A stretch of 64,000 nucleotides of DNA from an uncultured Gammaproteobacteria bacterium (GCA_964596415.1 CAZQSX010000001.1:37508-101507), one strand, 5' to 3'. Numbered from the stretch's first letter, positions 11,627 to 38,857 are shown. Notes: generated by a model not told the origin, from the sequence alone. Numbers and translations are program-made.

Positions 11627-13844
11627 GTTTGTAAATTATTGTTTTCTCCTGGGATCCTTTGAAGATTATTTTTCCAAGCGTTTTAAATTTTTCTTCTGAA
11701 ACATTATATTTTTCTTTTTCCTCATTTCCCACTATTACATATTCCACCTGATATTTTTTAAATAACGGTATTGAAGTTGCAAGATCTCCTTCATACATTG
11801 TTCTTACCTCCTCGATTCTTGGTGCAGGAATGTCATAGCTTCCACGCCATAACCATTCGTGTACTGTCCAGCCCAATATCGTTGGAAGACCGGTGTTTGC
11901 AGAAATTCGAGCGGCGTTCGTATAGGAATCTCCCTGAGCCTCTAAAATAACTGGTTGATTAGAGATAGATGAATTTAGAAATTGAATTGCTTGTAGGTCA
12001 TCTGGATTTATTTTTTTAATATAATCAGTTCCGTTAAGTCCTTTGTATTCTCTTAAGTCTGAATAATAGGATCGAATTGCAAAATAAGGATAAATAAGAA
12101 CTCCTGTCAGAAGGACAAATGTTATAAGAAAGAAAATTATTTTAAGTGCAACATTTTTTATACGTGAAAAAAGGAAAACTATGATATAGGCACTTGCAAG
12201 CGTAAGTAGCATAAATGCTTGATAAACTAATTTAAACATTGTATTTGCTCGGTAATGCGCTGGATAAATATCTTTTGCATATAAAAACTCAGGCGTGAGA
12301 ATAAGTAGAAATGAAATAATAATAATAAGTAGAATAAAAATATTTGTCATATTTTTGGGAAATGCTAAAATGTAGGACTTGTCTTTTTGGGAAAATTGAA
12401 AGATTTTTTTTGTTCTCATCATTAGAAACGCAACAAATGAACCGGTATAGAAAATAAAAAATCCGTATAAAATAAGCAGTTGATAAAGTTCAGATTTTTG
12501 ACAGTGATCTTTTTCAAATAAAAAAGGTCCAACCTTTCCGATATTCGTTAAGAAATCAGGAGCACATATAATTCCTACTCCAGATACAAACGGTTTGAAA
12601 AAGATATTGAAAGGTAGAGAAAATAAAAAATAGAAAATGATAATCAGTCCCACTGCGTATATGTTTTCTTTTATAAATTTTTTAAAATTATGAACGGCAC
12701 GTATATAGGGAAATACTAAGTGTTTTTCTTTTTTATGCATGGAAAAGTTGAGTAGTTTAATTTTTAGAATAATTATTATGAAAGTGGTGAGCCCTAAATA
12801 AATGATCCCGTCCCATACATTTGTCATATACATAATTGCAAGAAAAAGAGCTAATGTTGTAGTTTGAAGTTTTGTAAAAACCCCGTTTTTTAATACAGTA
12901 AAAGAAAGCGCCAGTGTTAAAAGTACGAATGGAATATCTAGAACGTGTCCATGCAAATCAGAGACAATAAATGAATACAGTGGAAATTCATGGATTGTTA
13001 AAGGGATAAATCTAGTCGCATTTGGATACCAGTAGTCATTTGGGAATGTATTTGGTAAAAAAACAAGATTCCATGGGGGAGTTGGTTTCTCTCCTATATA
13101 TGGTTGAAATAATGTATATATTGTATGTAGGTTTCCTGACAGGGATAGTAGTGTGCCGCCAAGAATTCCTCCTAGTATGCGTTTTTTTACTTCAAACTTT
13201 TCTAAGAAGTTGAAAAGAATGGAAAATCCACCACTTAGTGTAAATGCAAAAAGTGTAGCAATCATTAAGTTATAGGAAATATAGTTAGGAACCATAGATA
13301 ATTTTGTGAGCACTGCAGTTGCTAAATGACCAAAGAAATAATAATTTATGGGAAGTGGAGTAAACCACATATCTTTTGGAGGAAAATATTCACTTCTTAA
13401 GATTGAGTTTACAAACCCATAATCCATGAATTTTTCAAGCGATTGAATGCTTGGTTCATGTGCTCGAACATACGCCCAGAAACAGAGCGCTGAGAAAAAA
13501 AGAAGTTCTTCAAAAATAATTACTTTTGCAAGAAAAGAGACTTTTTTTGAAATGTGAATATTTTGTTTGAGGGTTTTTTTTAAAATATACATATTTCCAA
13601 TAAGTGAGATAAGTAAAACAAAAAGTATGGAGTAAACGTTAAACGGTAGAATGTGAAGCGTTCCTAAAACCAGAAGTACATAAGACAAAATGCCAATTCC
13701 CAATACTTTTGAGAAAATATAAAAATAGTCCTGACTTTTATGAAATAAAAGCATGGAGAGGGGAAGGAAAATAAATCCTATTCCTAAAAGTATCGCCCAC
13801 CATTGTAATATATATAAAAAATCACCTTGCATGAATGAAAACAA
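11616..13844 (-). CDS. large polytopic membrane protein (>12 TM) with a C-terminal extracytoplasmic domain; putative GT-C-fold glycosyltransferase (DUF2298/YYY-like?)
   Basis: 742 aa, a hydrophobic N-terminal two-thirds, and a C-terminal soluble domain of about 150 aa. Family assignment is uncertain. Confidence 0.55.
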   Translation of the reverse strand: MFSFMQGDFLYILQWWAILLGIGFIFLPLSMLLFHKSQDYFYIFSKVLGIGILSYVLLVLGTLHILPFNVYSILFVLLISLIGNMYILKKTLKQNIHISKKVSFLAKVIIFEELLFFSALCFWAYVRAHEPSIQSLEKFMDYGFVNSILRSEYFPPKDMWFTPLPINYYFFGHLATAVLTKLSMVPNYISYNLMIATLFAFTLSGGFSILFNFLEKFEVKKRILGGILGGTLLSLSGNLHTIYTLFQPYIGEKPTPPWNLVFLPNTFPNDYWYPNATRFIPLTIHEFPLYSFIVSDLHGHVLDIPFVLLTLALSFTVLKNGVFTKLQTTTLALFLAIMYMTNVWDGIIYLGLTTFIIIILKIKLLNFSMHKKEKHLVFPYIRAVHNFKKFIKENIYAVGLIIIFYFLFSLPFNIFFKPFVSGVGIICAPDFLTNIGKVGPFLFEKDHCQKSELYQLLILYGFFIFYTGSFVAFLMMRTKKIFQFSQKDKSYILAFPKNMTNIFILLIIIISFLLILTPEFLYAKDIYPAHYRANTMFKLVYQAFMLLTLASAYIIVFLFSRIKNVALKIIFFLITFVLLTGVLIYPYFAIRSYYSDLREYKGLNGTDYIKKINPDDLQAIQFLNSSISNQPVILEAQGDSYTNAARISANTGLPTILGWTVHEWLWRGSYDIPAPRIEEVRTMYEGDLATSIPLFKKYQVEYVIVGNEEKEKYNVSEEKFKTLGKIIFKGSQEKTIIYKLTY

Positions 13845-13856
13845 TTATATACTGTT

Positions 13857-15287
13857 TTAATATTCTTGACCAGAAGAGACAAGCCCACATTTTTTTACAG
13901 CTTTGCTATGAGAAAATTCTAATAGGTACGCAGTTATAGAGTCATTTTGTGGATCTGGGAATAGAAATCTACAATATTCTTGAGGGAATGTTATATCTTG
14001 GCGAATTATTTCAGTTCTTTTTTTAGCAATGAGCAGATACTGATAATTATATGTAATACCATCATTTCCTGAGAGATGATAATTAGTTGCATATACATTT
14101 TGCCCTAAAACGTTCACTTTTCCCCAGATAGTATTTGCAATTGGATCAACTGAGAAAAAAAGTCCTAAAATAGTGAGAAGAAATACTACAAAAATTGAAG
14201 TAGCCTTTACGAAAAAGTTTTTAAGTTGTGTAACAACCACAGAAAACCAAAGGAGAAGGAAGGGAATTATGGGAAGCGCGTATCTTGGGATTGTATAAGT
14301 TTGAAACGTTAGAACAGTTAATGCATACAAAATACAAAAAATTAAAATGAAAAGTATAGTTTTTGTTTGAGCATCAAATCGGGTTACTGTTTGAATGATT
14401 TTTTTTCGATTTTCCTTTCTTATTAAAATAATAATAGTTATAAAAATAGAAATCGCGATTATTATCCAATTGAAGTTTAAAAATAATAGCTGAAGAAAAT
14501 GCTGCGTAGCATATTCATTAAAAATTTTAAGTGTAACTACATTATTAACAATTGTATAGAATGTTCCCTGGTCAGCTGTGTCCGTAAAAATCCAATCGCT
14601 CCACTCACCTTTACCGTTCATATTTAAAAAATTGTCCCAAATATAATAAGCAGCAATAGGAATAATATAAAAGAAAATGTATTTAATTTGCTTCGATTTT
14701 TTTGTAAGTAATATAGTAGTGATATCCAAAAGTAAAAATGTTCCAACTATCAAAAGTCCAGTTTCCTTAGTGAGAATAATTAAACAGAGCAAAAGCGAAA
14801 AAAGTAGATGCTTTTTTTGCAAATATACTAACAAAGTCCAGATGAGAATAATTGTTATAACATAGTCTATTAGTGAAAAAAATGCAGTTGAAATAAGCAG
14901 AGGATTCATAGAAAAGATTATAGTTGAGATTTCTGCGGAGGGTTTACTTGATACTTTTTTGGTTAAGAAATACATTCCTATTATTCCAAGTACTCCCAAG
15001 ATGTATCCAAAGAGATTAAATCCTATACTAGAAAGTCCAAAGAACTGGAGAAGAAAAGCCGAAGACACAATTTTTAATGGTGGGTGTATCGAAGAAAATT
15101 GAGAAAAATAAAGATCAAATCCACCATTAAAAAAATAATACGATTTTACAAAGTCAATATTCCCATCAAGATATGGAAAGCTATTTATAAAAGGAAGAAA
15201 TAACAAGGAGAATATAACAAAGGAAATAAGAAGCGATATGTTATTTCGTGCAGTTTTTAGATACGTTGTAAATTTCAAATTCTCCAT
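13857..15287 (-). CDS. polytopic membrane protein, putative GT-C-fold (ArnT/PMT-like) glycosyltransferase
   Basis: 476 aa with more than 10 predicted TM helices and an acidic first-loop motif (PYLDGNIDF). Overlaps the upstream gene by 47 nt. Confidence 0.55.
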   Translation of the reverse strand: MENLKFTTYLKTARNNISLLISFVIFSLLFLPFINSFPYLDGNIDFVKSYYFFNGGFDLYFSQFSSIHPPLKIVSSAFLLQFFGLSSIGFNLFGYILGVLGIIGMYFLTKKVSSKPSAEISTIIFSMNPLLISTAFFSLIDYVITIILIWTLLVYLQKKHLLFSLLLCLIILTKETGLLIVGTFLLLDITTILLTKKSKQIKYIFFYIIPIAAYYIWDNFLNMNGKGEWSDWIFTDTADQGTFYTIVNNVVTLKIFNEYATQHFLQLLFLNFNWIIIAISIFITIIILIRKENRKKIIQTVTRFDAQTKTILFILIFCILYALTVLTFQTYTIPRYALPIIPFLLLWFSVVVTQLKNFFVKATSIFVVFLLTILGLFFSVDPIANTIWGKVNVLGQNVYATNYHLSGNDGITYNYQYLLIAKKRTEIIRQDITFPQEYCRFLFPDPQNDSITAYLLEFSHSKAVKKCGLVSSGQEY

Positions 15288-16866
15288 TCTTATATTCTAA
15301 TTGAAATTCTCTCTCAAATACATCTGATATTTTAGGTTGATCGGGGTTGTTTATTTGGCTTCTATTAATTTCTATATATGAGATTTTATTTTTAAGAAGT
15401 AATCTGCAAATTTCTCTTTTGGAAGCAGATGAAAACATTATGCTTCTTTCACTTCCTCTTTTTTCCGTGTCATACCCTGCTGACCAAGCAAAATATGGCC
15501 ACCCTAAAAATATTTTTCTTCCAACAATTGATTCAGGAGCAAGAAGAAATGTATTATTAAGAAAAATACTATCAGGAGCTGTGTTGTATAAAATCCATTG
15601 CGCCGTTTTATTATGAGTGTAATCCGAAAGTTGTATTTTTTGATCATTCAGGATGGGGAATAGATCTATAATTCCTGACAGTGTAAGAAAAAACACGAGT
15701 AGAATAGTAACAGGTTTCATGAATTTTTTACGCCAAAGCTTTATGAGAATAAATCCGGTAAACATACTACCCATAAGCATAAAATAATTAAAAAATTTGT
15801 GGTTAGCAGCCATTTCTGGAGAAAATTGAAATAAATTTCCTATTACAAACATGCTAAAAAATGCGAGAAGTACTTTTTTTTGATTTTTATTTGCAAAGAG
15901 AAAACCAAGAATGATAAGTAAAAAGTGAAGTCCTAAATTCATAAACCAATACAAGGTAAAATTTGCAACTGAAAGATTTTCAGAGATAAGATATCCCGGT
16001 TTAAAAACAATACCAAAAGCATTTCCTCCCGAATTCATGTAGAGATATTGGGGATACGAGAATAAACCTGCCATTAAAAGTAGAATTAGCAACTGGCTTC
16101 TTATTTTTGAAAAGAATAATCCAAGAAAAACTAAAACAATTCCGGTCATCATAAAAACGGCTACATGAAAGTAAAAAGAAAGACCAAGTAAAGACCCTAG
16201 TAGCAAGGATTCTGTAATTCCAAGATTTTTCTTTTTAGAAAATATAGGTTTTAACACTTGAGATATTACAAAAAGTGAAAGAGCGAGTGCTGCTGCAAAG
16301 TGTCTCTGGTTTGTATAGATGTTCAGATTCCAGAATGCAGATACAATACCAGTTCCATAATAGGGTGCGAACGAAGAGAAGGAGGTGTTTTTAATTATAT
16401 CCTGAATGTATAAAGTTGAAAGTGGATGTTTTTGAAAGAAATATATGAATGAGAGCGATCCGTTAAATAAAAAAAAGATTACGGTAAGAATTCCAACTGC
16501 CCTTGATGAGAAAACTAACTTTGCAAAAGAATATAACATAACAAGGAGGAGAAAAAATCCAATACTTGATGGAATATTTAATGCGAGATTTATGGGAAGT
16601 CCTATTTTTTCAAGTAGTCCCACAAATGCATAAAACAAGAAATGGTAGTGGATTGGTTCACCTGGGAATAAAGGGTATTCTACTGGAAAATTCCATCCTA
16701 ACGAAAAAGAGCGTATAAGCGGTATGTGCGAAGCGAAGTCGCTCCATAATTTTGAACCAATCAGTATGTTTCCGTTTTGGTATGAGAATGTTTGAAGCAT
16801 TAATATGCATGAGAAAAGGAAGCAGAGTCCAAAGAAGACGCGAATGAGGATTTTGTTAGAAAGCAT
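15241..16866 (-). CDS. polytopic membrane protein, putative GT-C-fold glycosyltransferase
   Basis: 541 aa with about 12 TM helices. Third of three co-oriented GT-C-like genes. Confidence 0.55.
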   Translation of the reverse strand: MLSNKILIRVFFGLCFLFSCILMLQTFSYQNGNILIGSKLWSDFASHIPLIRSFSLGWNFPVEYPLFPGEPIHYHFLFYAFVGLLEKIGLPINLALNIPSSIGFFLLLVMLYSFAKLVFSSRAVGILTVIFFLFNGSLSFIYFFQKHPLSTLYIQDIIKNTSFSSFAPYYGTGIVSAFWNLNIYTNQRHFAAALALSLFVISQVLKPIFSKKKNLGITESLLLGSLLGLSFYFHVAVFMMTGIVLVFLGLFFSKIRSQLLILLLMAGLFSYPQYLYMNSGGNAFGIVFKPGYLISENLSVANFTLYWFMNLGLHFLLIILGFLFANKNQKKVLLAFFSMFVIGNLFQFSPEMAANHKFFNYFMLMGSMFTGFILIKLWRKKFMKPVTILLVFFLTLSGIIDLFPILNDQKIQLSDYTHNKTAQWILYNTAPDSIFLNNTFLLAPESIVGRKIFLGWPYFAWSAGYDTEKRGSERSIMFSSASKREICRLLLKNKISYIEINRSQINNPDQPKISDVFEREFQLEYKNGEFEIYNVSKNCTK

Positions 16867-16870
16867 AACG

Positions 16871-18235
16871 TTATTGTACTATTATTTCTGTAATCCTTTT
16901 TCCTAGCTCTACCGCGTAATTTGTTCCTCTATCCCAAGGGTATACCTGTTCAATGTTTGCAAGATAAACATTTTTAAGAGGGGTTTTAAATTCTGGAATC
17001 TGTTTTGAATAATTTGGAAAAATAATGGGCTGGGCAAATGGCGCATGGAATAGTTCAGATCCAATGATATATTTTTTATAGTTAGGGTTTATTTTTTTAA
17101 GCCAGGGGTCATATAACTTAAGAAGTTGCTGTTCAGTCATTTTGAATCTTGGATCAGTTATTTCCATATAATTACCTAAATAAACGAGATGCTCATTCCC
17201 ATAGTGCTTTTTATCCATAAAATTCGTATGTTCAACGATTGCCAAAATCGGGGATTTTAAATCACACATGTTCAGCCAATATGTATTATCTGAAAAAAAC
17301 GGTTGTTTTAGTCGAAGTACTAAATTCATGGCTCCAATTCCAACTAGTTTTCCTAACTTCTCAGAATAATCCTTGGGGAGTGAGGGTGTAATTTTTTTAA
17401 AAAGAAATGATGGGGTAGTTACAATGACTGTATCATAATTACTAACTACTAACTTTTCTAGACCCACAGTTGAAGCCGAGGATCGCAAGCTTTGCTTACC
17501 ACGAACTTTTTTAAATGTCACTTGAGGATTATTATTTGATGTTAGGTTAACAACCTCTGTTTCATAAAAAAACTTTGCCCCATTTTTTTCCGCCGCTTTT
17601 TGCAGGTGAAGCGCAAACTCCAAAAATCCTCCTTCAGGATAAGCCAAGCTTGGAGTTCTTTTATAGATTCTTGCCCAAAACCAACTGAGAGATACGTCTT
17701 TTGCATATTTTCCCAGCTTGTTATCCATTAAAGGTTTCCAAATCATGTCATATCCTTTTTTTCCCATGAACTTTTTAAGGTACGGTTCTGCTTTGTATTT
17801 TTCAAGTGGGCGCCAGATAGGATTATATTTAAGAAGGGCAAGGGAGACTCCCATGCGGATCCGGTCGGTTAAAGAAAGCTTTGGAAATTTAAGAAGAGAT
17901 GTGGGGGAATCAAGTTGGAAAATTTTGTCATGCACAAATGATGAAGTTTTAGGTCTGACTATTTCAACTTGATGGTGAATCTCAGAGGCAAGATCCAGCA
18001 CATTTTTATCATTTGTGAACCAATGATGATAATGCTTTTCAAGCGTCCAGTCCCACTTCGTCGTTTTACTCCTCAGTGCAGGCACTTTTTTTCTTTGATT
18101 GACAGGCTTAAATCCGACTGCAAGACCTCCCGGTTTTTCATCGAGCTCAAAGACATTAACAGAATGACCACCCTTTGATAGATAGTAGGCTGCTGAAAGA
18201 CCGGTAAAGCCGGCACCGATAATTGCAATTTTCAT
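16871..18235 (-). CDS. FAD/NAD(P)-binding oxidoreductase (amine-oxidase / phytoene-desaturase / protoporphyrinogen-oxidase superfamily)
   Basis: N-terminal Rossmann dinucleotide motif MKIAIIGAGFTGLSAAYYLSKGGHSVNVFE...GG. Length 454 aa. Confidence 0.75.
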   Translation of the reverse strand: MKIAIIGAGFTGLSAAYYLSKGGHSVNVFELDEKPGGLAVGFKPVNQRKKVPALRSKTTKWDWTLEKHYHHWFTNDKNVLDLASEIHHQVEIVRPKTSSFVHDKIFQLDSPTSLLKFPKLSLTDRIRMGVSLALLKYNPIWRPLEKYKAEPYLKKFMGKKGYDMIWKPLMDNKLGKYAKDVSLSWFWARIYKRTPSLAYPEGGFLEFALHLQKAAEKNGAKFFYETEVVNLTSNNNPQVTFKKVRGKQSLRSSASTVGLEKLVVSNYDTVIVTTPSFLFKKITPSLPKDYSEKLGKLVGIGAMNLVLRLKQPFFSDNTYWLNMCDLKSPILAIVEHTNFMDKKHYGNEHLVYLGNYMEITDPRFKMTEQQLLKLYDPWLKKINPNYKKYIIGSELFHAPFAQPIIFPNYSKQIPEFKTPLKNVYLANIEQVYPWDRGTNYAVELGKRITEIIVQ

Positions 18236-26967: not shown

Positions 26968-28984
<2,017 letters not shown>

Positions 28985-29120
28985 CGTAGAGAGATTAGAG
29001 CTTAGTGAATAGAGAATAGTTATTTTTCTATAGATTCGATTACCCACTCTTCATATTTTTCATTTAAACTACGTTCTCATTTATACTGAATACTAAATAC
29101 AGTATACTTGATACTGAATT

Positions 29121-29945
29121 ATGGTTGATGTGCATTGTCATTTAAATTTCTATAAATTTGAAAATGATTTTGATCAAGTGATAAAAGATGCATTTCAGGC
29201 TGGAGTTAAAACCATTGTTAATACGGGAACAAGTATTGAATCAAGTAAAAAAGCAGTTGATCTAGCCTCGAAATATCCTAATTTGTACGCTATTGTTGGT
29301 ATTCATCCGCATCATGCGGACAAATCAGATGAAAAATATGAGGGCTTGATGCCCGAGGATTGGCTGGAGCAACTCGAAAAATTAGCTAAAAATGAAAAGG
29401 TGATAGGAATCGGAGAAATAGGGATGGATTATTGGAATTACCGGACAAATGGGATAGTTCCAAAAGATTTGCAGGAAGATGCTTTTAGAAAACAAATTGA
29501 ACTTTCCATAAAGCTATCTCTTCCGCTTCAAATTCACACGCGTCTTGCGTGGGATGATACGCTTTCTATACTTTCTGATTATGTAAAAGACTTGCAGGAT
29601 GTGCCAGGAATGTTTCATTGCTTTTCAGGAAGTACTGAATTTGCAAAAAAAGTTCTTGACGCAGGTTTTTATGTAGGATTTGATGGGAACATTACGTATC
29701 CAGGTATTCCACCAGGAGAAAGTACTGCGTTGTCAGAACTTGTGAAGTATGTGCCAATTGAGCGTATAGTTACTGAAACAGATAGTCCATTCTTGTCACC
29801 ACAAATTCTTCGTGGAACCAGAAATACCCCTAAAAATGTTATAATTATAGCAGGGGAGATCGCCCGGTTAAAAGGTATATCCTTTGAAGAGGTAAATACT
29901 ATTACCACAAAAAACGCACAAACAGTTTTTAGAAACATTGTATGA
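29121..29945 (+). CDS. tatD: TatD-family metal-dependent hydrolase/DNase
   Basis: MVDVHCHLNF, GIGEIGMDY, and His/Asp/Glu ligand pattern through HCFSG and FDGNITY. Confidence 0.85.
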   Translation: MVDVHCHLNFYKFENDFDQVIKDAFQAGVKTIVNTGTSIESSKKAVDLASKYPNLYAIVGIHPHHADKSDEKYEGLMPEDWLEQLEKLAKNEKVIGIGEIGMDYWNYRTNGIVPKDLQEDAFRKQIELSIKLSLPLQIHTRLAWDDTLSILSDYVKDLQDVPGMFHCFSGSTEFAKKVLDAGFYVGFDGNITYPGIPPGESTALSELVKYVPIERIVTETDSPFLSPQILRGTRNTPKNVIIIAGEIARLKGISFEEVNTITTKNAQTVFRNIV

Positions 29946-31438
29946 ATTATTATTTGAGCCTGTTTTTTACCAGATATCCGAGAAAATCAATAAGACTTCT
30001 TGAATTAATCCCTCCTTTGACCGCCCTATTTCTTATTAGTATCCCGTTTTGGGGATCGTTTTTCTTTCCGGTAATTCTTGCTTACTTTATTATATTCTTT
30101 GATATTTGGTGGCTTTATAAGTCTGTAAATTTGGCAATTTGTTCATTTATTGCGTCTAGAAAAATAAAAATTGCTGAAAAAACAGACTGGATGGAGAAAG
30201 TAATGAGTTTGCCACAAAGTTTAAAAATACATCATATTATTATCATCCCTACCTATAAAGAATCGCTAAATAAGCTCATGGAGACCATAAATAGTATCCA
30301 GTCTCAGACATTTCCCAAAAAACAAATACATATTTATTTAGCAATGGAAGAGAGGGAGGCAGAGGCTTTTCAGAAAGCAAAAGAATTGATAAAGCATTAC
30401 AAAAATGTTTTTGGAACAATAACGGCAACATTCCATCCGGATTTACCAAATGAAGTAAAAGGAAAATCTTCGAACCAAGCATTTGCAAGTGTTAAAGCGT
30501 ATAAGGAGTTAGTTGAGGGGGGTCGCATTGATATAGATTATGCGACAATCTCATCTGTTGATGCTGATTCTATTTTTGATGAGCAATATTTTGCGCACGT
30601 AGCTTACACATTTCTTACTTGCAAGAATCCTCATCTCTCATTTTTTCAATCTGCAAATGTTTACTATAATAATTTTTGGAAAGTTCCAGCTGGAACTCGG
30701 GTTATTGCATTTTTTGGAAGCTTATTGAGGACTTCACTTCTCGTTCAGGGATTAAAACTTATTCCTAATTCAACATATACACTTTCCTTTAAGCTTTTGA
30801 AAAACATCGGATATTGGGATACAGATGTTATTCCAGAAGACTATCGGGTATTTTTTAAAGCATTTTTTATGAATGAAGGAAAGGTTTCAGTTGAGCCAAT
30901 TTTTCTTAAAACGTCTATGGATGCACCTCAATCTATGACGTATGTTGGAAGCCTTATGAATAAATATAACCAAGAAAGAAGATGGTCTTGGGGAATTTCA
31001 GATGATGCTGTGTTTCTAAGATGGTGGTTGACCGTAAAAAATGTTCCTTTTCTAAAAAAGACATATTTGGTTTCAAATGTTTTGCTAGATCATATTTTAT
31101 GGCCAGTAAACTGGTTTATTATTACCATTTCTGCAAATTTAGTCGTATTTTTGAATCCTGTTTTTTCAAGAACAAGTCTTGGATATACGCTTCCTCAACT
31201 TTCAGGGTTCATATTAACGGTATGTTTATTTACTCTTTTTATTATGATTTATGTTGATTTTGATCTTCGTTCAAATAAATACGCGAAACCTTCTAAAATG
31301 AAACAGTTTATGTTTCCTTTAGAATTTGTGCTTATGCCGATTGCTGGATTTTTACTTTCCACAATTCCAGCGCTTATGTCACACCTACAACTCATACGAG
31401 GAAAGAGGATGGAGTATAAAGTAACTGAAAAGGTCTAA
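29942..31438 (+). CDS. membrane-integrated processive family-2 glycosyltransferase (cellulose/chitin-synthase-like)
   Basis: N-terminal TM pair, a GT-A domain with DxD (SSVDADSIF), the QxxRW motif (QERRWSWG), then a C-terminal multi-TM region. ATGA overlap with tatD. Confidence 0.8.
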   Translation: MNYYLSLFFTRYPRKSIRLLELIPPLTALFLISIPFWGSFFFPVILAYFIIFFDIWWLYKSVNLAICSFIASRKIKIAEKTDWMEKVMSLPQSLKIHHIIIIPTYKESLNKLMETINSIQSQTFPKKQIHIYLAMEEREAEAFQKAKELIKHYKNVFGTITATFHPDLPNEVKGKSSNQAFASVKAYKELVEGGRIDIDYATISSVDADSIFDEQYFAHVAYTFLTCKNPHLSFFQSANVYYNNFWKVPAGTRVIAFFGSLLRTSLLVQGLKLIPNSTYTLSFKLLKNIGYWDTDVIPEDYRVFFKAFFMNEGKVSVEPIFLKTSMDAPQSMTYVGSLMNKYNQERRWSWGISDDAVFLRWWLTVKNVPFLKKTYLVSNVLLDHILWPVNWFIITISANLVVFLNPVFSRTSLGYTLPQLSGFILTVCLFTLFIMIYVDFDLRSNKYAKPSKMKQFMFPLEFVLMPIAGFLLSTIPALMSHLQLIRGKRMEYKVTEKV

Positions 31439-31463
31439 CGACCATTTTTCTATAACTTTGCGT

Positions 31464-31478
31464 CTTGCCTTTGGCAAG
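31464..31478 (+). terminator. weak hairpin (CTTGCC-ttt-GGCAAG) followed by TTTAAAAGTT after the GT2 gene
   Basis: 6-bp stem with a 3-nt loop. The downstream run is A/T-rich but not a clean U-tract. Confidence 0.3.
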
Positions 31479-31486
31479 TTTAAAAG

Positions 31487-33040
31487 TTGCCAATAAATTC
31501 TAGAATGGAGTTATTAAAAAAAATTTATAAAAAAGAAGTAAAGCCTGACTATGATTATTTCTTTCTCATTGGGGTTGTATTTTTATTTATCCTTCTAAGG
31601 ATTCCATCCCTTGTTGAGCCAGATTGGTATGGTGATGAAGGAATATATCAGGTAATTGGACGAGCACTTAATTCGGGGAGAATGTTATATTCTGGGATCT
31701 GGGATAATAAGCCGCCGCTTTTATACGTTTTATACGCGTTTGTAAATGGAGATTTATTTTTAATTAGATTGTTGTCTCTTGTTTTCGGAGCGCTTTCAAT
31801 AATTGTGTTTTTCTTTGTTGCAAGAAATCTTTTTCAGAAAAGGGTTTCATTATTTTCTGCAACTTTTGCTTTTGGATTTTTGTTTGGGATACCTCTTCTG
31901 GAAGGAAATATTGCAAATGCAGAGAATTTCATGATTCTGCCAATTCTTCTTGCTTTGTATCTTTTAATAAAACTTAAAAAATCTTCGTCAGTTTTTCAGC
32001 CTGCCCTTATAGGGATACTTCTTTCAGTTGCATTTTTAACGAAGATAGTTGCGTTGTTTGATTTTATTGCATTTGTTTTTATTTTATTTACGTTACGTTT
32101 TTATGATTTAAGTTTTATTGATTTGAAGCATTTTCTTTCACGTCCAAAAGAGCTTATCAGGGTTATAAAGCTTGAAACGATTCTTGCGGTTGCATTTCTA
32201 ACCCCCATTTTTTTAACAGGTCTGTACTTTTTACTCGTAGGTAGTTTTCAAGATTTTTTTAGGGCAGCGTTCTCCCAAAATGTAGGATATGTAGGATACG
32301 CGAATTTATTACAGTTTAAGCTGGGAACCATGGACGTGTCTGTGCCGCAAGGGATTTTAATACTGAAAGTAATTGCTTTATTTATCGCAATAATACTTAC
32401 CATTCTGTTTAGAAGAAAACTTGGAAGGGCAGGAGTAGCAATATATCTTTGGATGTTATTTTCACTTTTTAATACGTTTTTTTCAGGAAGACCGTATACG
32501 CATTATATGTTAGTTTCCCTACCTGCTTTTTGTTTATTTTTTGGTTTATTATTTGAAAAAGCAGAAGTGCGATTAAAAGTGTTTCATGTTTTCATATTTA
32601 TTATTGTCTTACTTCTTTTGCGAAAAAACTTTTGGATGTATACAAAAATCACACCGTACTATGCAAATTATGTTGAATTTATGAATGGGCAAAGGTCTAT
32701 TACAACATATCAATCTTTTTTTGATAGAATAACACCTAGAGATTATGAGATAGCTCGATTTATTGAGATAAATACAAAACCAGAAGATGCAATATTTTTA
32801 GTTTCTGACAGTGGGCAAATTTATTTTCTCGCGGATAAGTTACCACCTGGACGTTATATAGTTGCATATCATATTTCATTTTATAAAGATGGAATTTTAG
32901 AAACTCAGAAAGCAATAGATGAAGCAAAACCAAAATATATAATTGTTACAAAAGATGGTGAGTTGAAAAATAATTTTTTATCAAATTATGAATTAAGATA
33001 TTTACTAAATTCAATCCAAATTTATGAGCGTGAGGAATAG
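31487..33040 (+). CDS. GT-C-fold glycosyltransferase of the ArnT/PMT (family 39/83-like) type
   Basis: First extracytoplasmic loop DWYGDEGIYQVIGRALNSGRMLYSGIWDNKPPLLYVLYAF, with the DE/D-x-D acidic motif and hydrophobic pattern typical of PMT_2/ArnT. About 12 TM helices plus a C-terminal soluble domain. Confidence 0.7.
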   Translation: MPINSRMELLKKIYKKEVKPDYDYFFLIGVVFLFILLRIPSLVEPDWYGDEGIYQVIGRALNSGRMLYSGIWDNKPPLLYVLYAFVNGDLFLIRLLSLVFGALSIIVFFFVARNLFQKRVSLFSATFAFGFLFGIPLLEGNIANAENFMILPILLALYLLIKLKKSSSVFQPALIGILLSVAFLTKIVALFDFIAFVFILFTLRFYDLSFIDLKHFLSRPKELIRVIKLETILAVAFLTPIFLTGLYFLLVGSFQDFFRAAFSQNVGYVGYANLLQFKLGTMDVSVPQGILILKVIALFIAIILTILFRRKLGRAGVAIYLWMLFSLFNTFFSGRPYTHYMLVSLPAFCLFFGLLFEKAEVRLKVFHVFIFIIVLLLLRKNFWMYTKITPYYANYVEFMNGQRSITTYQSFFDRITPRDYEIARFIEINTKPEDAIFLVSDSGQIYFLADKLPPGRYIVAYHISFYKDGILETQKAIDEAKPKYIIVTKDGELKNNFLSNYELRYLLNSIQIYEREE

Positions 33041-33377
33041 TTTTATAGTACGAGATAGTAGCATAAAATATCCATTTTTTTTATGTATTTTTTTTCTGAC
33101 AATTCAAGTAATACTTATAGCCATTTTTTACAGTAGTCTTCCGCCTCTTATTCCACTTTTTAATAGTTTACCTTGGGGGGGAAATAGATTAGCTCTTTCC
33201 CAGCTTATTTTTTTAGTTCCTGCAGTTTCTATTGTTGTTATCTTTTTAAATCTATATATAGCAAAACTTATTTACACAAAACATACGCTTGTTGCTAGAA
33301 TACTAACGGTAAACGGTTTCTTAGTCTCATTATTAGGTTTTTTTGCATTGGTACAGATTTTACTGCTTATATTTTAA
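33024..33377 (+). CDS. small membrane protein (117 aa, 3 TM)
   Basis: Hydrophobic ORF overlapping the preceding gene by 17 nt and ending 1 nt before the next. Confidence 0.45.
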   Translation: MSVRNSFIVRDSSIKYPFFLCIFFLTIQVILIAIFYSSLPPLIPLFNSLPWGGNRLALSQLIFLVPAVSIVVIFLNLYIAKLIYTKHTLVARILTVNGFLVSLLGFFALVQILLLIF

Positions 33378-33378
33378 T

Positions 33379-34428
33379 ATGAATTTTTTACAACCAAGTA
33401 TTATTTTTTTAGTACCGTTTATTTTGTGTATTATTTTTGTTCCGGTGGTAATCTCCTTTGCTAAAAAGTATGGATTACTCGATGACCCTAAAACACATAA
33501 GCATCCTGCAATAATTCATAAAAAACCAATCCCTCGGGCGGGGGGGTTACCAATTCTTATTGCGATTATAATTTCTTCACTGTTTTTTCTTCCCGCTTAC
33601 CCTCAGCTACTTATTATATATATGTGCTCTATTGGGGTAGTTATCGTAGGTTTACTTGATGATAAGTATGATATTTCTCCTTACTTTAGATTTTTTACAA
33701 ATATTTTATTCGCTGGAATAGTTGTTTTTGCAGCAGGGGTTACTATTCCTTACGTGACGAATCCTTTAGGGGGAATAGTGCACTTTACGGGTTTTGAGCT
33801 TTCAAAACTATTTGTTCCTCAGCTTTTTGCAATCATATGGATTGTATGGATTATGAACATGTTGAACTGGAGTAAAGGAGTTGACGGACAAATGCCTGGT
33901 ATAGCTGCTATTTCATCAATTATCATTGGTGTTGCAGCGTATAGATTTCCTGAAGTTACTGAGGCAAATATTATTGCAGGCAATTTATCTTTCATAGTTG
34001 CGGGTGCAGCTGCTGGTTTTTTGGTTTATAATTTTTATCCTGCTAAGATATTTCCCGGGTATTCAGCAACTATTCTTGGTTTTTTAATTGGAATTTTGTC
34101 AATTCTTTCAGGCGTTAAGCTCGCAACTGCACTTCTTGTTATGGGTGTTCCCGCAGTTGACGCTTTATTAACCGTCTCAAGAAGGCTACTTTCCAAGAGA
34201 TCTCCTTTCTGGCATGATAAAGGTCACTTGCACCATCTATTACTTGATGCAGGAATGTCTCAAAAACAAATTGCCATATCATACTGGATCATGTCTCTTA
34301 TTTTAGGACTTATAGCATTAAACCTTTCAAGTAAAGGAAAATTATTTGCTATAATTTTGTTACTAGTGATAGTTGGTGGGGTAATCATTACGCTTAAGTA
34401 TATTTTAAAAAAAAATAAAACTGCATGA
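33379..34428 (+). CDS. polyprenyl-phosphate N-acetylhexosamine-1-phosphate transferase (MraY/WecA, GT4 family)
   Basis: About 10 TM helices. Cytoplasmic loop motifs MNMLNWSKGVDGQ and the YPAKIFPGYSATILGF region. Start taken at MNFLQP. Confidence 0.75.
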   Translation: MNFLQPSIIFLVPFILCIIFVPVVISFAKKYGLLDDPKTHKHPAIIHKKPIPRAGGLPILIAIIISSLFFLPAYPQLLIIYMCSIGVVIVGLLDDKYDISPYFRFFTNILFAGIVVFAAGVTIPYVTNPLGGIVHFTGFELSKLFVPQLFAIIWIVWIMNMLNWSKGVDGQMPGIAAISSIIIGVAAYRFPEVTEANIIAGNLSFIVAGAAAGFLVYNFYPAKIFPGYSATILGFLIGILSILSGVKLATALLVMGVPAVDALLTVSRRLLSKRSPFWHDKGHLHHLLLDAGMSQKQIAISYWIMSLILGLIALNLSSKGKLFAIILLLVIVGGVIITLKYILKKNKTA

Positions 34429-35366
34429 GAAATACAATTTTTTTCTATTATTTTAAATTATTAAGACCAAGGCAGTGGCTAAAGAATTTTGCACTTTTTG
34501 CAGCTCCTATGTTTGGTGGTCAGTTGTTTTTACCTGAAGTAATGATTCCGATTGTTTGGGGCTTTATTGCTTTTTGTTTACTCTCATCTGCAACATATGT
34601 TATTAATGATTTACTAGACATTGAAAAAGATAAACTACATCCATTCAAAAAAAATAGACCCATTGCAGCTGGGGTTATTTCTCCTCGGGCAGGGATTATA
34701 TATTTTGTGTTTTTGATTTCTACATCTCTGTATATTTCATTTCACACGTCAATTCTGTTTTTCTTAATTGCCGTTTTGTATCTTATTTTGCAACTTTCAT
34801 ATTCACTTATCTTTAAAAATATTGTAATCTTTGACATTCTAATTATTGCTTCTGGATATTTTTTACGTGTGTATGCTGGCGAAATTCTTTCAGGGTACCA
34901 TATATCTATTTGGCTTCTCTTAACAACCGTGTCTATTTCGCTCTTTTTGGCGGTAGGTAAAAGAAGATCAGAGTTAACGCTTTTAAAAGATAAAACAGGA
35001 AGCCATTTGGCAGCGGTGAGAAAAAGTTTATCTCATTATTCTGAGCATTTGCTTGATGCGTATTCTATGATGTTTGCTGCTTCAACGCTTATTTTCTATG
35101 CACTTTTTACTTTTCAGGAATCTTCCAGAGGAATTCAGGCCCCTGAGATTTTTCTTCCAGAATTTCTACCGGATTACTTTCAGCGTAAATGGTTGATGGT
35201 TACAACTTTTCCTGTGATTTACGGAGTTATGAGATATCTTCAGGATATTTATGAAAAGTCTGAGGGTGAAAGTCCTGAGCGAGTACTTCTTTCAGATAAA
35301 GCTTTATTATCAGCTGTTATTATGTGGGGGCTTCTTGTTATATTTGTTATTTACGTTATTGGTTAG
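34425..35366 (+). CDS. UbiA-superfamily prenyltransferase, decaprenyl-phosphate phosphoribosyltransferase-like
   Basis: KLLRPRQWLKNFALFAAPMFGG and the Asp-rich motif YVINDLLDIEKDKLHPFKKNRPIAAG (NDxxDxxxD). About 8 TM helices. ATGA overlap with the upstream gene. Confidence 0.7.
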   Translation: MRNTIFFYYFKLLRPRQWLKNFALFAAPMFGGQLFLPEVMIPIVWGFIAFCLLSSATYVINDLLDIEKDKLHPFKKNRPIAAGVISPRAGIIYFVFLISTSLYISFHTSILFFLIAVLYLILQLSYSLIFKNIVIFDILIIASGYFLRVYAGEILSGYHISIWLLLTTVSISLFLAVGKRRSELTLLKDKTGSHLAAVRKSLSHYSEHLLDAYSMMFAASTLIFYALFTFQESSRGIQAPEIFLPEFLPDYFQRKWLMVTTFPVIYGVMRYLQDIYEKSEGESPERVLLSDKALLSAVIMWGLLVIFVIYVIG

Positions 35367-36201
35367 AAAGCTTTGTATAATCTTCACTTACCCAACCTTG
35401 CTTACCTTCTGCTAGTTGTATTTGATACCATCCATCTTGCTCATTCACATAGGGAAAAATTTCTCCGGGTTTAACTTGGCTTACTTCTGAGAAGTTAACA
35501 CTTGGTCCGCTTCTTACCCGAAGGAATCCAACAGGCGTTGAGAGAATGGTCACTGTTTGTGAGTCTGGAGTGGGTGTGGGGGTTGGTGGTTCTTGTCCAG
35601 GAAGATTTTCTGTTTCAGTGGGTACGGTGCCAAGTACCGCTTCAACGATCAATTTATATCCAGGGACGGTTCTAACAAGAATTGTTTTTTTACCATACCC
35701 TCCTTTTTGAAGCTCAACTTCATGTTCAGATGTTGTTATATCAGTTATTGTTTTTGGAGTTACCCCAACGTCATCTCCGTCAAGTGTTATAAGAGAACCG
35801 TCTGGAATTGAGGTAACAAATAATTCTGTTTTTTGTCCTTTTATCTTTTCTAGATATAAGACATATGATGAGGCATATGATCCAGGAAGAAAAGTTCTGT
35901 CAACAGCTGTGAGTACTCCGTTTAGAATCTTAACTTTTGTGGAATAGGTTTCTGATCCGTCATCAGGAATAAGTTGAAGCGTATAGAGACCAGCGTTTAT
36001 GGTATCTTGTGGGTCGCATAGACAAAGAGGTGTGTTTCCGATTGCTTTTCCGTTTAGAACTACTTTTGCTCTTACATTGCTATCTACTTTTAATGCTCCT
36101 TTTCCTTTTGGTAAAAACCGGTCTATTAATTGGAAGAGAAGAAAAAATCCGATAAAAATAAGAATTATTGCGAAAAATGAAAACAAGCGTTTTTTCTTCA
36201 T
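35356..36201 (-). CDS. membrane-anchored PEGA-domain protein with C-terminal SH3b-like domain
   Basis: TM anchor, PEGA-like repeats (AKVVLNGKAIGNTPL; ITLDGDDVGVTPKTI), a PT linker, and a C-terminal GFLRVRSGPS...GWYQI...GWVSEDY region (SH3_3-like). Start taken at MKKKRLF; the ORF track gives 36279. Confidence 0.7.
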   Translation of the reverse strand: MKKKRLFSFFAIILIFIGFFLLFQLIDRFLPKGKGALKVDSNVRAKVVLNGKAIGNTPLCLCDPQDTINAGLYTLQLIPDDGSETYSTKVKILNGVLTAVDRTFLPGSYASSYVLYLEKIKGQKTELFVTSIPDGSLITLDGDDVGVTPKTITDITTSEHEVELQKGGYGKKTILVRTVPGYKLIVEAVLGTVPTETENLPGQEPPTPTPTPDSQTVTILSTPVGFLRVRSGPSVNFSEVSQVKPGEIFPYVNEQDGWYQIQLAEGKQGWVSEDYTKLSNQ

Positions 36202-36313
36202 AAAACAGTATGATTTATAATACCAGAGGAAAAGTGACGAGACAAGTAAAGATAAACTATATGATATTGACCCCACCAACTTACTTCTCGCCTTTTTAAT
36301 TCTATCTAAAAGA

Positions 36314-36336
36314 ACGAGTACTCGAGTATTCGAATA
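36314..36336. promoter_or_regulatory. Nested perfect palindromes GAGTACTC / TACTCGAGTA / GTATTCGAATAC in a divergent intergenic region
   Basis: Seen directly, between the PEGA gene (minus) and hsp20 (plus). Confidence 0.5.
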
Positions 36337-36381
36337 CGGCTCAAAGAGCGTTTATGGAGGGGTCTGCGACCTTTCAGGTAT

Positions 36382-36425
36382 TGACAAATTAGCAGTTAAT
36401 ATGCTAGACTGCTAATGTATAAATT
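36382..36425 (+). promoter_or_regulatory. hsp20 promoter with embedded CIRCE-like operator: -35 TTGACA, TTAGCA-gttaatatgctagac-TGCTAA, -10 TATAAAT
   Basis: The inverted repeat TTAGCA-N15-TGCTAA has exactly the spacing of the canonical CIRCE (TTAGCACTC-N9-GAGTGCTAA) and lies between the -35 and -10 boxes. Confidence 0.65.
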
Positions 36426-36587
36426 CTTAAGTATGAAGAGCAAAGGAGGTGAAAAAGAAACTACAAGTATATACCGCTAACTCTTGGTGCATCCCTCGGA
36501 TATAACCTCGGGATTTACCAGAGACTCTCGGTATAGTTTCATAAACGAATACAAATTAGATATATTCTAATGTAGTTTATTTCAATT

Positions 36588-37022
36588 ATGGCAATTATAA
36601 GATGGAATCCTTGGAATATAGATCGCTTCTTTGAAGACGATTTTGACATGCCGACCATTCCTGGTGTATCTAGGCTTATGGGTCAAGGTCTTAATATCTA
36701 TGAAACAGAAAGTGCAGTAGTTGCAGAAGCAGCACTTCCTGGAATACAGGAGGATAAAGTAGACGTGACTTTCGAAGATGGAGTGGTTCGAGTAAGTGCA
36801 TCAATGGAAGATAATAAGGAAGAAAAAGATAAAAGACGATATTTTATGTCTTCTATGTCTACTTCCTTCAACTATTCATTTAAGGTTCCAACAGGGATTG
36901 TTCAGGATAAGGAACCAGAGGCAGAGCTGGAAGATGGTGTTCTGAAACTTACATTCAAAAAGATTGAAAAGAAAGAACCCAAGAAAATTAAAGTTACTAA
37001 AAAAGCAAAAGTTTTAAAATAG
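36588..37022 (+). CDS. Hsp20/alpha-crystallin small heat-shock protein
   Basis: MAIIRWNPW...DRFFEDDF N-terminus, an alpha-crystallin domain (VDVTFEDGVVRV ... AELEDGVLKLTF), and a basic C-terminus. Confidence 0.9.
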   Translation: MAIIRWNPWNIDRFFEDDFDMPTIPGVSRLMGQGLNIYETESAVVAEAALPGIQEDKVDVTFEDGVVRVSASMEDNKEEKDKRRYFMSSMSTSFNYSFKVPTGIVQDKEPEAELEDGVLKLTFKKIEKKEPKKIKVTKKAKVLK

Positions 37023-37074: not shown

Positions 37075-38496
37075 CTAGGAAAGCCTGGGGAATACTGGAT
37101 CAGAAGATACAATTTTTTCTGCAGTGAATTGGTTGAGTATTTTTTCAGCGGTTGTTGGTAGAAATGGTTGCAGATTATACGCAATGTGAATAATCTGATC
37201 AACCAATTTCACAAGGATTTGTTTTAATTCTTCATTTTCTTTCTCCCAGGGTTTTTGTTCATTTATTGAAACATCAGCATTTTTTATTTCACTCCAAATG
37301 TGTTCTAGTCCGCGGCTAAAATCATAAAGATCAAGTTGTTCTTTTAATTTTGAGTCAAGTTTTTCCGGCACACTTCCTCCTTGAAGTTCTACTTTTTCAC
37401 AAAGTTTTGCAATCCTTGAACACAAGTTTCCAAGCCCGTTTGCAAGATCTGAATTGTATACTTCGCGCAGTCTTTGTTCTGAAAAATCACCATCTCCGGT
37501 TGCAGGAATTTGGGACAGAAAATAATAGCGCAGTGCATCTACTCCGTATTTTTGGATCAGTGCGTTAGGATCAACTACATTTCCTAGAGTCTTTGACATT
37601 TTCTGACCATCTACCGTGAAGTATCCATGTACAAAAATTTCTTTTGGTAATTTTAGTCCAGCAGATAGTAAAAACGCTGGCCAATATACAGCGTGAAATC
37701 TGATAATGCCTTTTCCAATAACATGTACATCTGCCGGCCACCATTTGTTATATTCTTCTTCATTCGTTGCAAACCCAATTCCTGATTGGTAAATGTTGAG
37801 TGCGTCAAACCACACATACATTTTTTGGCTGTCATCTCCTGGAACTGGTACTCCCCAATTTTTTGCGCGAGCGTTTGTTCTGCTGATACTGATATCTTGA
37901 AGTCCTGTTTTTACAAATGATAAAACTTCATTTTTTCTTGACTCAGGAATAATCTTAATTACGTCGTTACTAAGAAGATCTTCAATTTGAGTTTGGTATT
38001 TTGATAATTTAAAAAAGTAATTTTCCTCCGTTACTTCTTCCAGCTTTCTTCCCGGGTGCTCAAAACATTCTCCTTTTTCATTTAGCTCTTCTTTTTCATA
38101 GAAAAGTTCACAACCCACGCAGTAAAGCCCTGAATAAGATTTTTTATAAATATCCCCAGCAGCACTACATAGTTCCCAAAGCTTTTGTGAAGACTTATGA
38201 TGCATTTCACTTGATCCTTTTTGAAACACATCAAACTTAACATTTAAATTTTTTGAGAGCTGTTCAAAAAGTTCTGTGTTTTTGTCTATAAATTCCTGAA
38301 TGGGTATTCCTTCTTTTTCAGCAGCCTGAACATTCTTCATTGCATTTTCATCCCCACCACATAGCAGTAGCACATCATCCCCTAATAATTTGCGATACCT
38401 TCGCACAGTGTCTGACTGCACAAATTCTAGCGCATGCCCTACGTGAGGTTTTGCGTTTACATACGGAATAGCATTTGTTATATAAAACTTATTCAT
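37075..38496 (-). CDS. metG: methionyl-tRNA synthetase, core only (no C-terminal tRNA-binding domain)
   Basis: HIGH-class motif PYVNAKPHVGHA, KMSKTLGN, and the connective peptide with a CxxC...C knuckle. Start taken at MNKFYIT; the ORF track's upstream Met is judged noncoding. About 474 aa. Confidence 0.9.
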   Translation of the reverse strand: MNKFYITNAIPYVNAKPHVGHALEFVQSDTVRRYRKLLGDDVLLLCGGDENAMKNVQAAEKEGIPIQEFIDKNTELFEQLSKNLNVKFDVFQKGSSEMHHKSSQKLWELCSAAGDIYKKSYSGLYCVGCELFYEKEELNEKGECFEHPGRKLEEVTEENYFFKLSKYQTQIEDLLSNDVIKIIPESRKNEVLSFVKTGLQDISISRTNARAKNWGVPVPGDDSQKMYVWFDALNIYQSGIGFATNEEEYNKWWPADVHVIGKGIIRFHAVYWPAFLLSAGLKLPKEIFVHGYFTVDGQKMSKTLGNVVDPNALIQKYGVDALRYYFLSQIPATGDGDFSEQRLREVYNSDLANGLGNLCSRIAKLCEKVELQGGSVPEKLDSKLKEQLDLYDFSRGLEHIWSEIKNADVSINEQKPWEKENEELKQILVKLVDQIIHIAYNLQPFLPTTAEKILNQFTAEKIVSSDPVFPRLS

Positions 38497-38533
38497 GCAT
38501 GAATTGTACCAAGAGGAGGCTAAAATGACAATC

Positions 38534-38857
38534 CTAAGATCTTTTTTTAAGACCAATATCCAGTATGAGAACAATAAGAAGAAGAACAGTAATATAAAAA
38601 ACATTTGCATACCCTGTTATTTGAAGGATTAACAGTGCAGAAGTAAAAAATCCGATGAGTATTCCTCGTCTTATATTTAAAAACACATAACTTGACAGCG
38701 CAAAACAGGTAAGAAAAATAAAAAGAAAGAAGATAATGACTGGGGACACACCGTAAAAAGATTTTTCAGGGTCTACAAAGTAAAAAGTAAGTGCAACACA
38801 GATGAAAGATGCAACTGTGAGCAGTAGATATGGTAAAAACTCTTTTCTTTTTTTCAT
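38534..38857 (-). CDS. small membrane protein (~107 aa, 3-4 TM)
   Basis: Hydrophobic ORF. Start taken at MKKRKEF to avoid a clash with the pyrD-like gene on the opposite strand. Confidence 0.4.
   Translation of the reverse strand: MKKRKEFLPYLLLTVASFICVALTFYFVDPEKSFYGVSPVIIFFLFIFLTCFALSSYVFLNIRRGILIGFFTSALLILQITGYANVFYITVLLLIVLILDIGLKKRS

Follow-up and report, generated by a model that had tools for sequence, protein, structure and literature searches.

The 64-kb stretch of DNA deposited under the name of an uncultured Gammaproteobacteria bacterium (CAZQSX010000001.1:37508-101507), referred to here as the window, contains at 29121-36279 a compact block of six plus-strand genes with overlapping or near-abutting ends and one convergent minus-strand gene (Table 1). 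Nearly all open reading frames (ORFs) of at least 100 aa in the window were scanned with Pfam, and equivalog cut-offs of NCBIfam were used. A previous sequence-only reading had described five co-oriented genes at 29942-35366 as a lipid-linked glycan module made up of a processive membrane glycosyltransferase of family 2 (GT2), a glycosyltransferase of the GT-C fold, a small membrane protein, a WecA/MraY-type transferase and a UbiA-type phosphoribosyltransferase. All five ORFs are present on the plus strand in this order, and all five family assignments hold. The unit is nevertheless larger, as these coordinates miss a TatD-family gene in front and a convergent PEGA-SH3 gene behind, both of which travel with the five.

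The TatD gene overlaps the start of the GT2 gene by 4 nt, and the same distance is shared by the gene of the polyprenyl-phosphate N-acetylhexosamine-1-phosphate transferase (PNPT) and the UbiA-type gene. Longer overlaps are found at the GT-C stop, which is overlapped by 17 nt by the gene of a 117-aa protein, and at the 3' end of the UbiA-type gene, where the convergent PEGA-SH3 gene intrudes by 11 nt. For GT-C and PNPT, the ATG codons at 31505 (511 aa, as in P0121 and L001) and 33379 are likelier starts than the upstream TTG codons, because gene calls on identical contigs (L001) agree with them. A scan of 28900-36700 for promoters and terminators gave nothing above shuffle level.

The GC content is about 0.35. 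The genome had been read as resembling those of the candidate phyla radiation (CPR), and this guess was right, since the named homologues belong to Candidatus Levybacteria (Levyibacteriota) within the Patescibacteria. The title "uncultured Gammaproteobacteria bacterium" is also carried by many species-representative records of metagenome-assembled genomes with the Levybacteria block (L008-L087). These titles disagree with what the records encode and with nearby records from Levybacteria and are therefore probably an artefact of submission.

Table 1. Genes of the conserved block and the LCP ligase in the window (plus and minus denote the strand)
Feature	Position	Strand	Family match
TatD-family metal-dependent hydrolase	29121..29945	+	Pfam TatD_DNase 264 bits; NCBIfam TIGR00010 260 bits
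Synthase-type membrane GT2, 498 aa	29942..31438	+	Pfam Glyco_trans_2_3 30.8 bits (cut-off 27)
GT-C fold glycosyltransferase, 511 aa	31505..33040 (ORF opens TTG 31487)	+	Pfam PMT_2 33.8 bits (cut-off 26.1)
117-aa membrane protein with three transmembrane helices, unnamed family	33024..33377	+	Predicted transmembrane helices
WecA-like polyprenyl-phosphate HexNAc-1-phosphate transferase (PNPT), 349 aa	33379..34428 (ORF opens TTG 33343)	+	Pfam Glycos_transf_4 92 bits
UbiA-superfamily enzyme, predicted PPPRS/DPPRS (Rv3806c-like), 313 aa	34425..35366	+	Pfam UbiA 74.6 bits; NCBIfam NF008978
Membrane-anchored PEGA-PEGA-(P/T-rich linker)-SH3b surface protein	35356..36279	-	Pfam PEGA 61.6 bits; SH3_3 49.1 bits
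LCP glycopolymer ligase	10496-11626	+	

The clearest assignment was obtained for the UbiA-type protein, which had been proposed to resemble decaprenyl-phosphate phosphoribosyltransferase, the synthase of decaprenyl-phosphoryl-phosphoribose (DPPR), rather than a menaquinone or heme O prenyltransferase. This was borne out at several levels. The protein passed the cut-off of the decaprenyl-phosphate phosphoribosyltransferase model NF008978 (214.6 bits, cut-off 207) and reached 209.9 bits on a second DPPR synthase model, NF008977, where the cut-off is 234; a third model, NF008976, gave 174 (cut-off 474) and the untyped model NF006088 for UbiA family prenyltransferases 166.7 (cut-off 351). Models for prenyltransferase, heme O, ubiquinone and menaquinone enzymes gave at most 56 bits. 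The only relatives in the PDB were the Mycobacterium tuberculosis Rv3806c entries 8j8j and 8j8k, with 8j8j matching over the full length at E=6e-38. In the structure of Rv3806c, Mg2+ is bound by N73 and D77 and the ribose is contacted by N73 and Q135, the 5-phosphate by K28, Y70 and Y157, and the pyrophosphate by R22, K87, R90, K143, Y138 and K208; these phosphoribose sites are not conserved among ordinary UbiA prenyltransferases (PMC10994848). When mapped through a HMMER alignment, all 12 contacts to phosphoribosyl pyrophosphate (PRPP) and Mg2+ were kept in the window protein (R14, K20, Y58, N61, D65, K75, R78, Q123, Y126, K131, Y145 and K200 for Rv3806c R22, K28, Y70, N73, D77, K87, R90, Q135, Y138, K143, Y157 and K208), and 11 of them are invariant in 20 Levybacteria homologues. 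The NDxxDxxxD motif for Mg2+ is present, and the protein has no fused phosphatase domain. By its predicted activity the enzyme is thus a PRPP:polyprenyl-phosphate phosphoribosyltransferase (PPPRS).

Neither GT-C nor GT2 matched any PDB entry by sequence, be it as single sequence or as profile, and for both proteins fold comparison alone worked. GT-C carries an invariant E44-P-x-W-Y-G-D50-E51-G stretch directly after its first transmembrane helix, which puts a DE motif into the first extracytoplasmic loop, and it ends in a small extracytoplasmic alpha/beta domain. Together with a score above the gathering threshold of PMT_2, this acidic motif places the protein with the PMT (GT39) and ArnT (GT83) enzymes, as the sequence-only reading had suggested; MIR domains, which characterise true protein O-mannosyltransferases, were not matched by Pfam. 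In the fold comparison, the highest values were reached by GPI mannosyltransferase I (PIG-M, 20.7), ALG3 (18.4), Pmt4 (17.9) and ArnT (17.3, 376 residues aligned), and lower ones by the mycobacterial AftA (12.4), AftB (11.9), AftD (10.3) and EmbA (7.7). The fold is therefore closer to PIG-M, ALG3, PMT and ArnT than to Emb/Aft, and the protein does not fall with the arabinofuranosyl GT-Cs of families GT53, GT85, GT87 and GT89. The choice between EmbC/AftA and PMT/ArnT that the earlier reading had left to be made thus goes to the PMT/ArnT side and counts against a specifically arabinan-building enzyme. Pentofuranosyl transfer by GT-C could still take place, because the experimentally proven ribofuranosyl GT-C ORF12 has likewise been described as closest to ArnT (PMC11127046).

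GT2 consists of two N-terminal transmembrane helices, a GT-A domain, interface helices and a C-terminal transmembrane bundle. Its Pfam match is weak (Table 1), but the motifs D207-A-D209, E299-D300 and Q344-E-R-R-W348 do not vary among 33 homologues. The protein thus shows both the D, DxD, (T)ED, QxxRW signature of processive membrane GT2 synthases and their layout, in which the GT-A domain is fused to interface helices and a transmembrane channel. In the fold comparison, paired values of 21.0 and 318 were obtained for PcManGT as top structural match, 19.9 and 358 for BcsA, and 19.7 and 372 for hyaluronan synthase (HAS) of a Chlorella virus. Polyprenyl-phosphate sugar synthases were more distant (DPMS, 13.4 and 206; GtrB, 12.9 and 192; ArnC, 12.5 and 189). 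GT2 is therefore a membrane-integrated enzyme of the synthase type and may act processively, although with PcManGT as the top structural match the fold alone is no proof of processivity. With BcsA, HAS, chitin synthase, PgaC and PcManGT it shares the D/DxD/ED/QxxRW signature and the packing of a GT-A domain against a transmembrane bundle. Unlike these enzymes, it has no sequence-level match in the PDB and no PilZ domain or partner subunits, and it is encoded in one operon with a PNPT. PcManGT is said to be a minimal cellulose-synthase-like enzyme with a lipid-linked acceptor, as reported by Gandini and colleagues in 2020, and the shared operon with PNPT suggests such an acceptor for GT2 as well.

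PNPT has the motifs DDxxD (106-110), NMxNWSxGVDGQ (172-183) and HLHH (295-298; numbering of the 361-aa ORF), which are conserved in 130 orthologues and, together with the Glycos_transf_4 match, assign it to the superfamily defined by DDxxD, NxxNxxxGxDG and HxHH. Its NCBIfam scores stay far below the cut-offs for WecA (88.5 vs 326), archaeal MraY (81.5 vs 450) and MraY (62.2 vs 192), and its best PDB match is MraY 5jnq (E=7e-15). The possibility that PNPT is the MraY of the cell was rejected because of 62 bits on the MraY equivalog against a cut-off of 192 and because of its WecA-like motifs. As judged from its motifs and model scores it is WecA-like, with no equivalog-level identity to either WecA or MraY.

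The 117-aa protein belongs to a family of 698 cluster representatives (E<=1e-3), nearly all of about 117 aa, and always lies between the GT-C and PNPT genes; distant relatives with 28-29% identity are found in the same block. For its conserved loop LPPxxPLFNSxPWGxxRL, the positive-inside rule predicts an outward orientation. No Pfam family was found for it apart from a faint match to DUF1648 in four of 47 members (best E=0.019), and it has no PDB relative. For these reasons, and because its comparison by hhalign with an SMR-like protein from the canonical system L094 gave a probability of 0.1%, GtrA/SMR flippase was rejected as a supported label. With its start overlapping the GT-C stop by 17 nt, the protein is probably translationally coupled to GT-C and may act as its partner. 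Most PEGA-SH3 orthologues have a linker rich in P, T and S (a median of 14 in 25 residues), whereas some lack it. The linker could carry O-glycans or could simply provide flexibility. TatD was considered as the missing 5-phosphatase because of its adjacency and is at most a candidate for this function; MetRS-TatD adjacency is common in bacteria. All three proteins, TatD, the 117-aa protein and PEGA-SH3, may have roles in the glycan pathway.

The arrangement of these genes was followed in about 120 Levybacteria loci, in which TatD and PEGA-SH3 accompany the five genes even where the sequence on either side is rearranged. In 87 loci collected with UbiA as seed, the order TatD-GT2-GT-C-117aa-PNPT-UbiA and then convergent PEGA-SH3 is essentially constant, with an identical block in about 80 of them; PEGA-SH3 follows UbiA in all 87 and keeps its place in the block where the flanks differ. 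Seeding with GT2, a choice that does not favour loci with UbiA, gave 80 metagenome loci, and all 42 that have at least 4.3 kb of sequence downstream contain UbiA and show the same gene order. Since the same order recurs with both seeds, the arrangement is not due to chance. TatD adjoins GT2 in about 80 loci, with either the methionyl-tRNA synthetase gene (MetRS) or GroEL upstream, and the flank order alternates between MetRS...GroEL and GroEL...MetRS, as expected from inversion of exactly the block from TatD to PEGA. In most relatives MetRS lies directly upstream of TatD. In the window (29121-29945 with 37075-38610) the block is inverted, so that it is preceded by GroES/GroEL and followed by MetRS on the other strand.

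The median identities of related proteins to those of the window were 63% for MetRS, 61% for GT2, 60% for UbiA, 57% for TatD, 54% for PNPT, 45% for GT-C, 42% for PEGA and 39% for the 117-aa protein. Conservation at the level of core genes is seen for the enzymes of the cytoplasmic face, with GT2 and UbiA matching MetRS, and the parts that face outward change more quickly. The block is a lineage-wide core-genome operon of Candidatus Levybacteria. In a few loci, UbiA and PEGA are separated by sporadic insertions (an MFS transporter, a toxin-antitoxin-like gene, an ATPase), which were not informative. In one more distant lineage (L092 and L093, 5176-7994), the block contains two tandem PMT_2-type GT-C paralogues, and L092 has three unannotated small genes without a Pfam match between UbiA and PEGA-SH3.

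From family and fold membership, from the conservation of catalytic and substrate-contact residues and from the conservation of the operon, all of which were observed here, we infer a pathway with its order of steps, acceptor, sugar identity and GT2 processivity. In this scheme, to which we give about an even chance as a whole, the operon joins two lipid-carrier branches of envelope-glycan synthesis. In the first branch, the WecA-like PNPT would form polyprenyl-PP-HexNAc on the cytoplasmic face, and GT2 would extend this product or make a free beta-glycan, the chain being exported via its own transmembrane bundle. In the second branch, the Rv3806c-like PPPRS would move 5-phosphoribose from PRPP to polyprenyl phosphate, and the resulting polyprenyl-P-ribose-5-P would be dephosphorylated and flipped to give polyprenyl-P-ribofuranose outside. 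The extracytoplasmic GT-C, probably with the translationally coupled 117-aa protein as partner, would then decorate the glycan or a surface protein with the pentofuranose, and the LCP ligase (Table 1) could join the polyprenyl-PP-linked product to peptidoglycan. Ribofuranose would be the default sugar, and not arabinofuranose, because no epimerase is encoded nearby, and judged from this gene content it is most likely the donor sugar. PRPP is in use in this organism, since PyrE and the pyrimidine pathway are encoded in the window, which also contains MurJ. The combination of PPPRS and GT-C is an experimentally proven route for the addition of ribofuranose outside the membrane (PMC11127046).

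Several observations weigh against this scheme. Among the scanned ORFs of the window, no DprE1 (FAD_binding_4/ALO) and DprE2 (SDR) epimerase pair was found, nor is such an epimerase present in the block of related loci. A 5-phosphatase (HAD PRP domain, or PAP2 as in Rv3807c) is missing from the block and the scanned window ORFs, a flippase of MATE, SMR or GtrA type was not recognised in the block or window, and neither HAD/PAP2 phosphatases nor MATE/SMR/GtrA flippases occur in the related blocks; the 5-phosphatase could be encoded elsewhere in the genome. As a positive control for the canonical pentofuranose layout, the unverified gut scaffold L094 ("Bacteriophage sp.", MT837543.1, 898-5419) has a complete set directly beside its UbiA-type PPPRS, namely a HAD phosphatase, an SMR/EamA-like 118-aa transporter, a NAD-dependent epimerase and a DUF6044 membrane protein of 565 aa. 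This gene set points to DUF6044 as the GT-C-type partner enzyme of such systems, yet GT-C of the window gave no significant hhalign match to it. In addition, synthase-type GT2s normally do not need a PNPT primer. Finally, two lineages, L097 (3257-8381) and L145 (516-6603), have the block without UbiA, which implies that GT-C may use another donor. In both, GT2, GT-C, the 117-aa gene, PNPT and PEGA are kept, with PNPT directly followed by convergent PEGA-SH3, and the catalytic motifs of GT-C are intact; L097 also lacks TatD. The coupling of UbiA to GT-C is thus frequent, with UbiA near-constant, but it is not obligatory.

A second envelope-glycan cluster is located at 10496-18235 in the window. 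It begins with the LCP ligase, and its other members are encoded on the minus strand: a 742-aa chlor_Arch_YYY/DUF2298 membrane protein, a 476-aa DUF2079/AZOBR_p60025-like protein, a polytopic protein of 541 aa that has no family assignment and ends in a soluble domain, and a FAD oxidoreductase of family PRK07233. The membrane proteins of this cluster could be further lipid-donor-dependent transferases. The GT-C profile gave no significant hhalign match to the 541-aa and 476-aa polytopic proteins.

Among the other explanations, protein O-glycosylation fares best, although it is still unlikely in our view. Here the PMT/ArnT-like GT-C would put the pentofuranose, or the glycan built by PNPT and GT2, on Ser/Thr residues, with the P/T-rich linker of PEGA-SH3 or type IV pilins as acceptor, by analogy to TfpW, which transfers arabinofuranose onto a Pseudomonas pilin. 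P/T-rich linkers are, however, common, and the PEGA-SH3 orthologues without one, together with the lack of MIR domains in GT-C, speak against it; the synthase-type GT2 would be left unexplained. It also might be that GT-C does not use the UbiA product at all. The core machine would then consist of GT2, GT-C, the 117-aa protein and PNPT, a lipid-linked glycan on polyprenyl-PP-HexNAc would be transferred or polymerised outside, and PPPRS would be an add-on that feeds, for example, the DUF2298 or DUF2079-like proteins. The two lineages that have this core with intact GT-C motifs and no UbiA fit this explanation, as do the other GT-C-like candidates in the window and the two GT-C paralogues in L092 and L093. 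Against it stand the presence of UbiA in all adequate GT2-seeded loci and its 4-nt overlap with the PNPT gene; L097 and L145 may carry UbiA elsewhere, and PMT_2/ArnT-type GT-Cs (GT39/GT83) characteristically use polyprenyl-monophosphate sugars. We consider this explanation improbable, somewhat more so than O-glycosylation.

Equally doubtful is the "mycobacterial arabinan logic" put forward by the sequence-only reading, according to which DprE1/DprE2-like enzymes encoded elsewhere would convert polyprenyl-P-ribose to polyprenyl-P-arabinofuranose and GT-C would build an arabinofuranose wall polymer on a WecA-primed backbone: the first enzyme is the same as in mycobacteria, a WecA-like PNPT and a GT2 are in the same operon, and 16-24 kb upstream there are the LCP ligase and, next to a FAD oxidoreductase, GT-C-like polytopic proteins (DUF2298, DUF2079-like), but the epimerase pair is missing from window and related blocks and GT-C is not Emb/Aft-like.

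The two-branch scheme can also be taken further. In Levybacteria, and probably in related Microgenomates, the operon would then make an essential-like, lineage-defining heteropolymer of the wall or surface, consisting of a PNPT-primed glycan from a minimal cellulose-synthase-like GT2 that is decorated outside with ribo- or arabinofuranose. Unrecognised proteins would replace phosphatase, flippase and epimerase, the 117-aa family would be a new flippase or an obligatory GT-C subunit, and PEGA-SH3 would serve as anchor or acceptor. Taken as one joint claim, this is a speculative extension that we hold to be rather improbable.

Other parts of the window showed further features. Downstream of the hrcA-grpE-dnaK genes, two genes for ClpB-like AAA+ chaperones (54439-57204 and 60335-62731) flank a secreted subtilase (57226-59019) and DnaJ (59082-59954). 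At 2222-4375, a 717-aa protein is encoded with matches to Kelch-repeat beta-propellers and a Peptidase_C39-like domain. A 752-aa protein (52087-54345) has a weak TrbL/VirB6 match (21 bits, below cut-off) and may be a membrane protein related to type IV secretion or competence.

There is hardly any experimental knowledge of the envelopes of CPR bacteria, which have tiny genomes and live attached to hosts. A glycan operon that reduced genomes have retained with the conservation of a tRNA synthetase gene may well encode a surface structure central to attachment or envelope integrity. PPPRS, GT-C with its 117-aa partner and GT2 are clonable targets for the study of PRPP-derived lipid-linked pentofuranose donors outside Actinobacteria and Proteobacteria and could reveal the substitutes for the missing phosphatase and flippase, even though the general chemistry has already been established in other systems and the genes are already so named in public annotation. 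NCBI annotation names the Levybacteria proteins DPPR synthase and ArnT/GT39-like. In a search of the literature on DPPR synthase, arabinofuranose or decaprenyl in CPR/Patescibacteria, no paper was found that discusses the pathway. Systems of PPPRS and GT-C for pentofuranose have been reported as widespread, with examples from Gram-negatives, Gram-positives and a phage and with many O-antigen loci among them (PMC11127046, 2024). With such systems and labels already in place, it was an overstatement to call the predicted polymer an unexpected envelope component.

The system is a variant of a known mycobacterial and gut-bacterial pathway and not a new kind. One of its closest counterparts is the three-component system of Citrobacter youngae O1/O2, in which ORF15 is a fused PPPRS-PRP, ORF14 a MATE flippase and ORF12 a GT-C of family GT136 (Kelly et al. 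2024, PMC11127046). Both have a UbiA-type PPPRS encoded with a GT-C, in the Levybacteria in the same operon and two genes apart in about 120 loci, both are predicted to use a polyprenyl-P-ribofuranose donor outside the membrane, and in both GT-C is ArnT-like and not Emb-like (PMC11127046). Unlike in C. youngae, the Levybacteria block has neither a fused or separate HAD phosphatase nor a MATE/SMR flippase or an epimerase, its GT-C falls into Pfam PMT_2, and the operon adds a synthase-type GT2, PNPT and the 117-aa protein. The operon described here lies among housekeeping genes, is conserved to the same degree as MetRS and is no variable serotype locus.

The mycobacterial decaprenyl-phosphoarabinose/arabinogalactan pathway (Rv3806c, Rv3807c, DprE1/DprE2, Rv3789, WecA, GlfT1/2, Emb/Aft, LCP ligase) shares the Rv3806c-like enzyme with all PRPP contacts, a WecA-like PNPT, a GT2, an extracytoplasmic GT-C and an LCP ligase, the latter elsewhere in the window, but its DprE1/DprE2, PAP2 phosphatase and GtrA-type Rv3789 have no counterpart in the block or window. 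Arabinosylation of the group IV pilin in Pseudomonas aeruginosa (PPPRS, DprE1/E2 homologues and the GT-C TfpW) likewise pairs PPPRS and GT-C outside the Actinobacteria, in an organism with type IV pili; unlike there, the Levybacteria block has no epimerases and GT-C does not adjoin a pilin gene. Compared with these systems, what is new is the fixed operon in which PPPRS and PNPT are combined with a GT-C of the PMT_2 type, a synthase-type GT2 and a small protein of a new family, its core-gene behaviour in a reduced genome, and the lack of the usual accessory parts in block and window.

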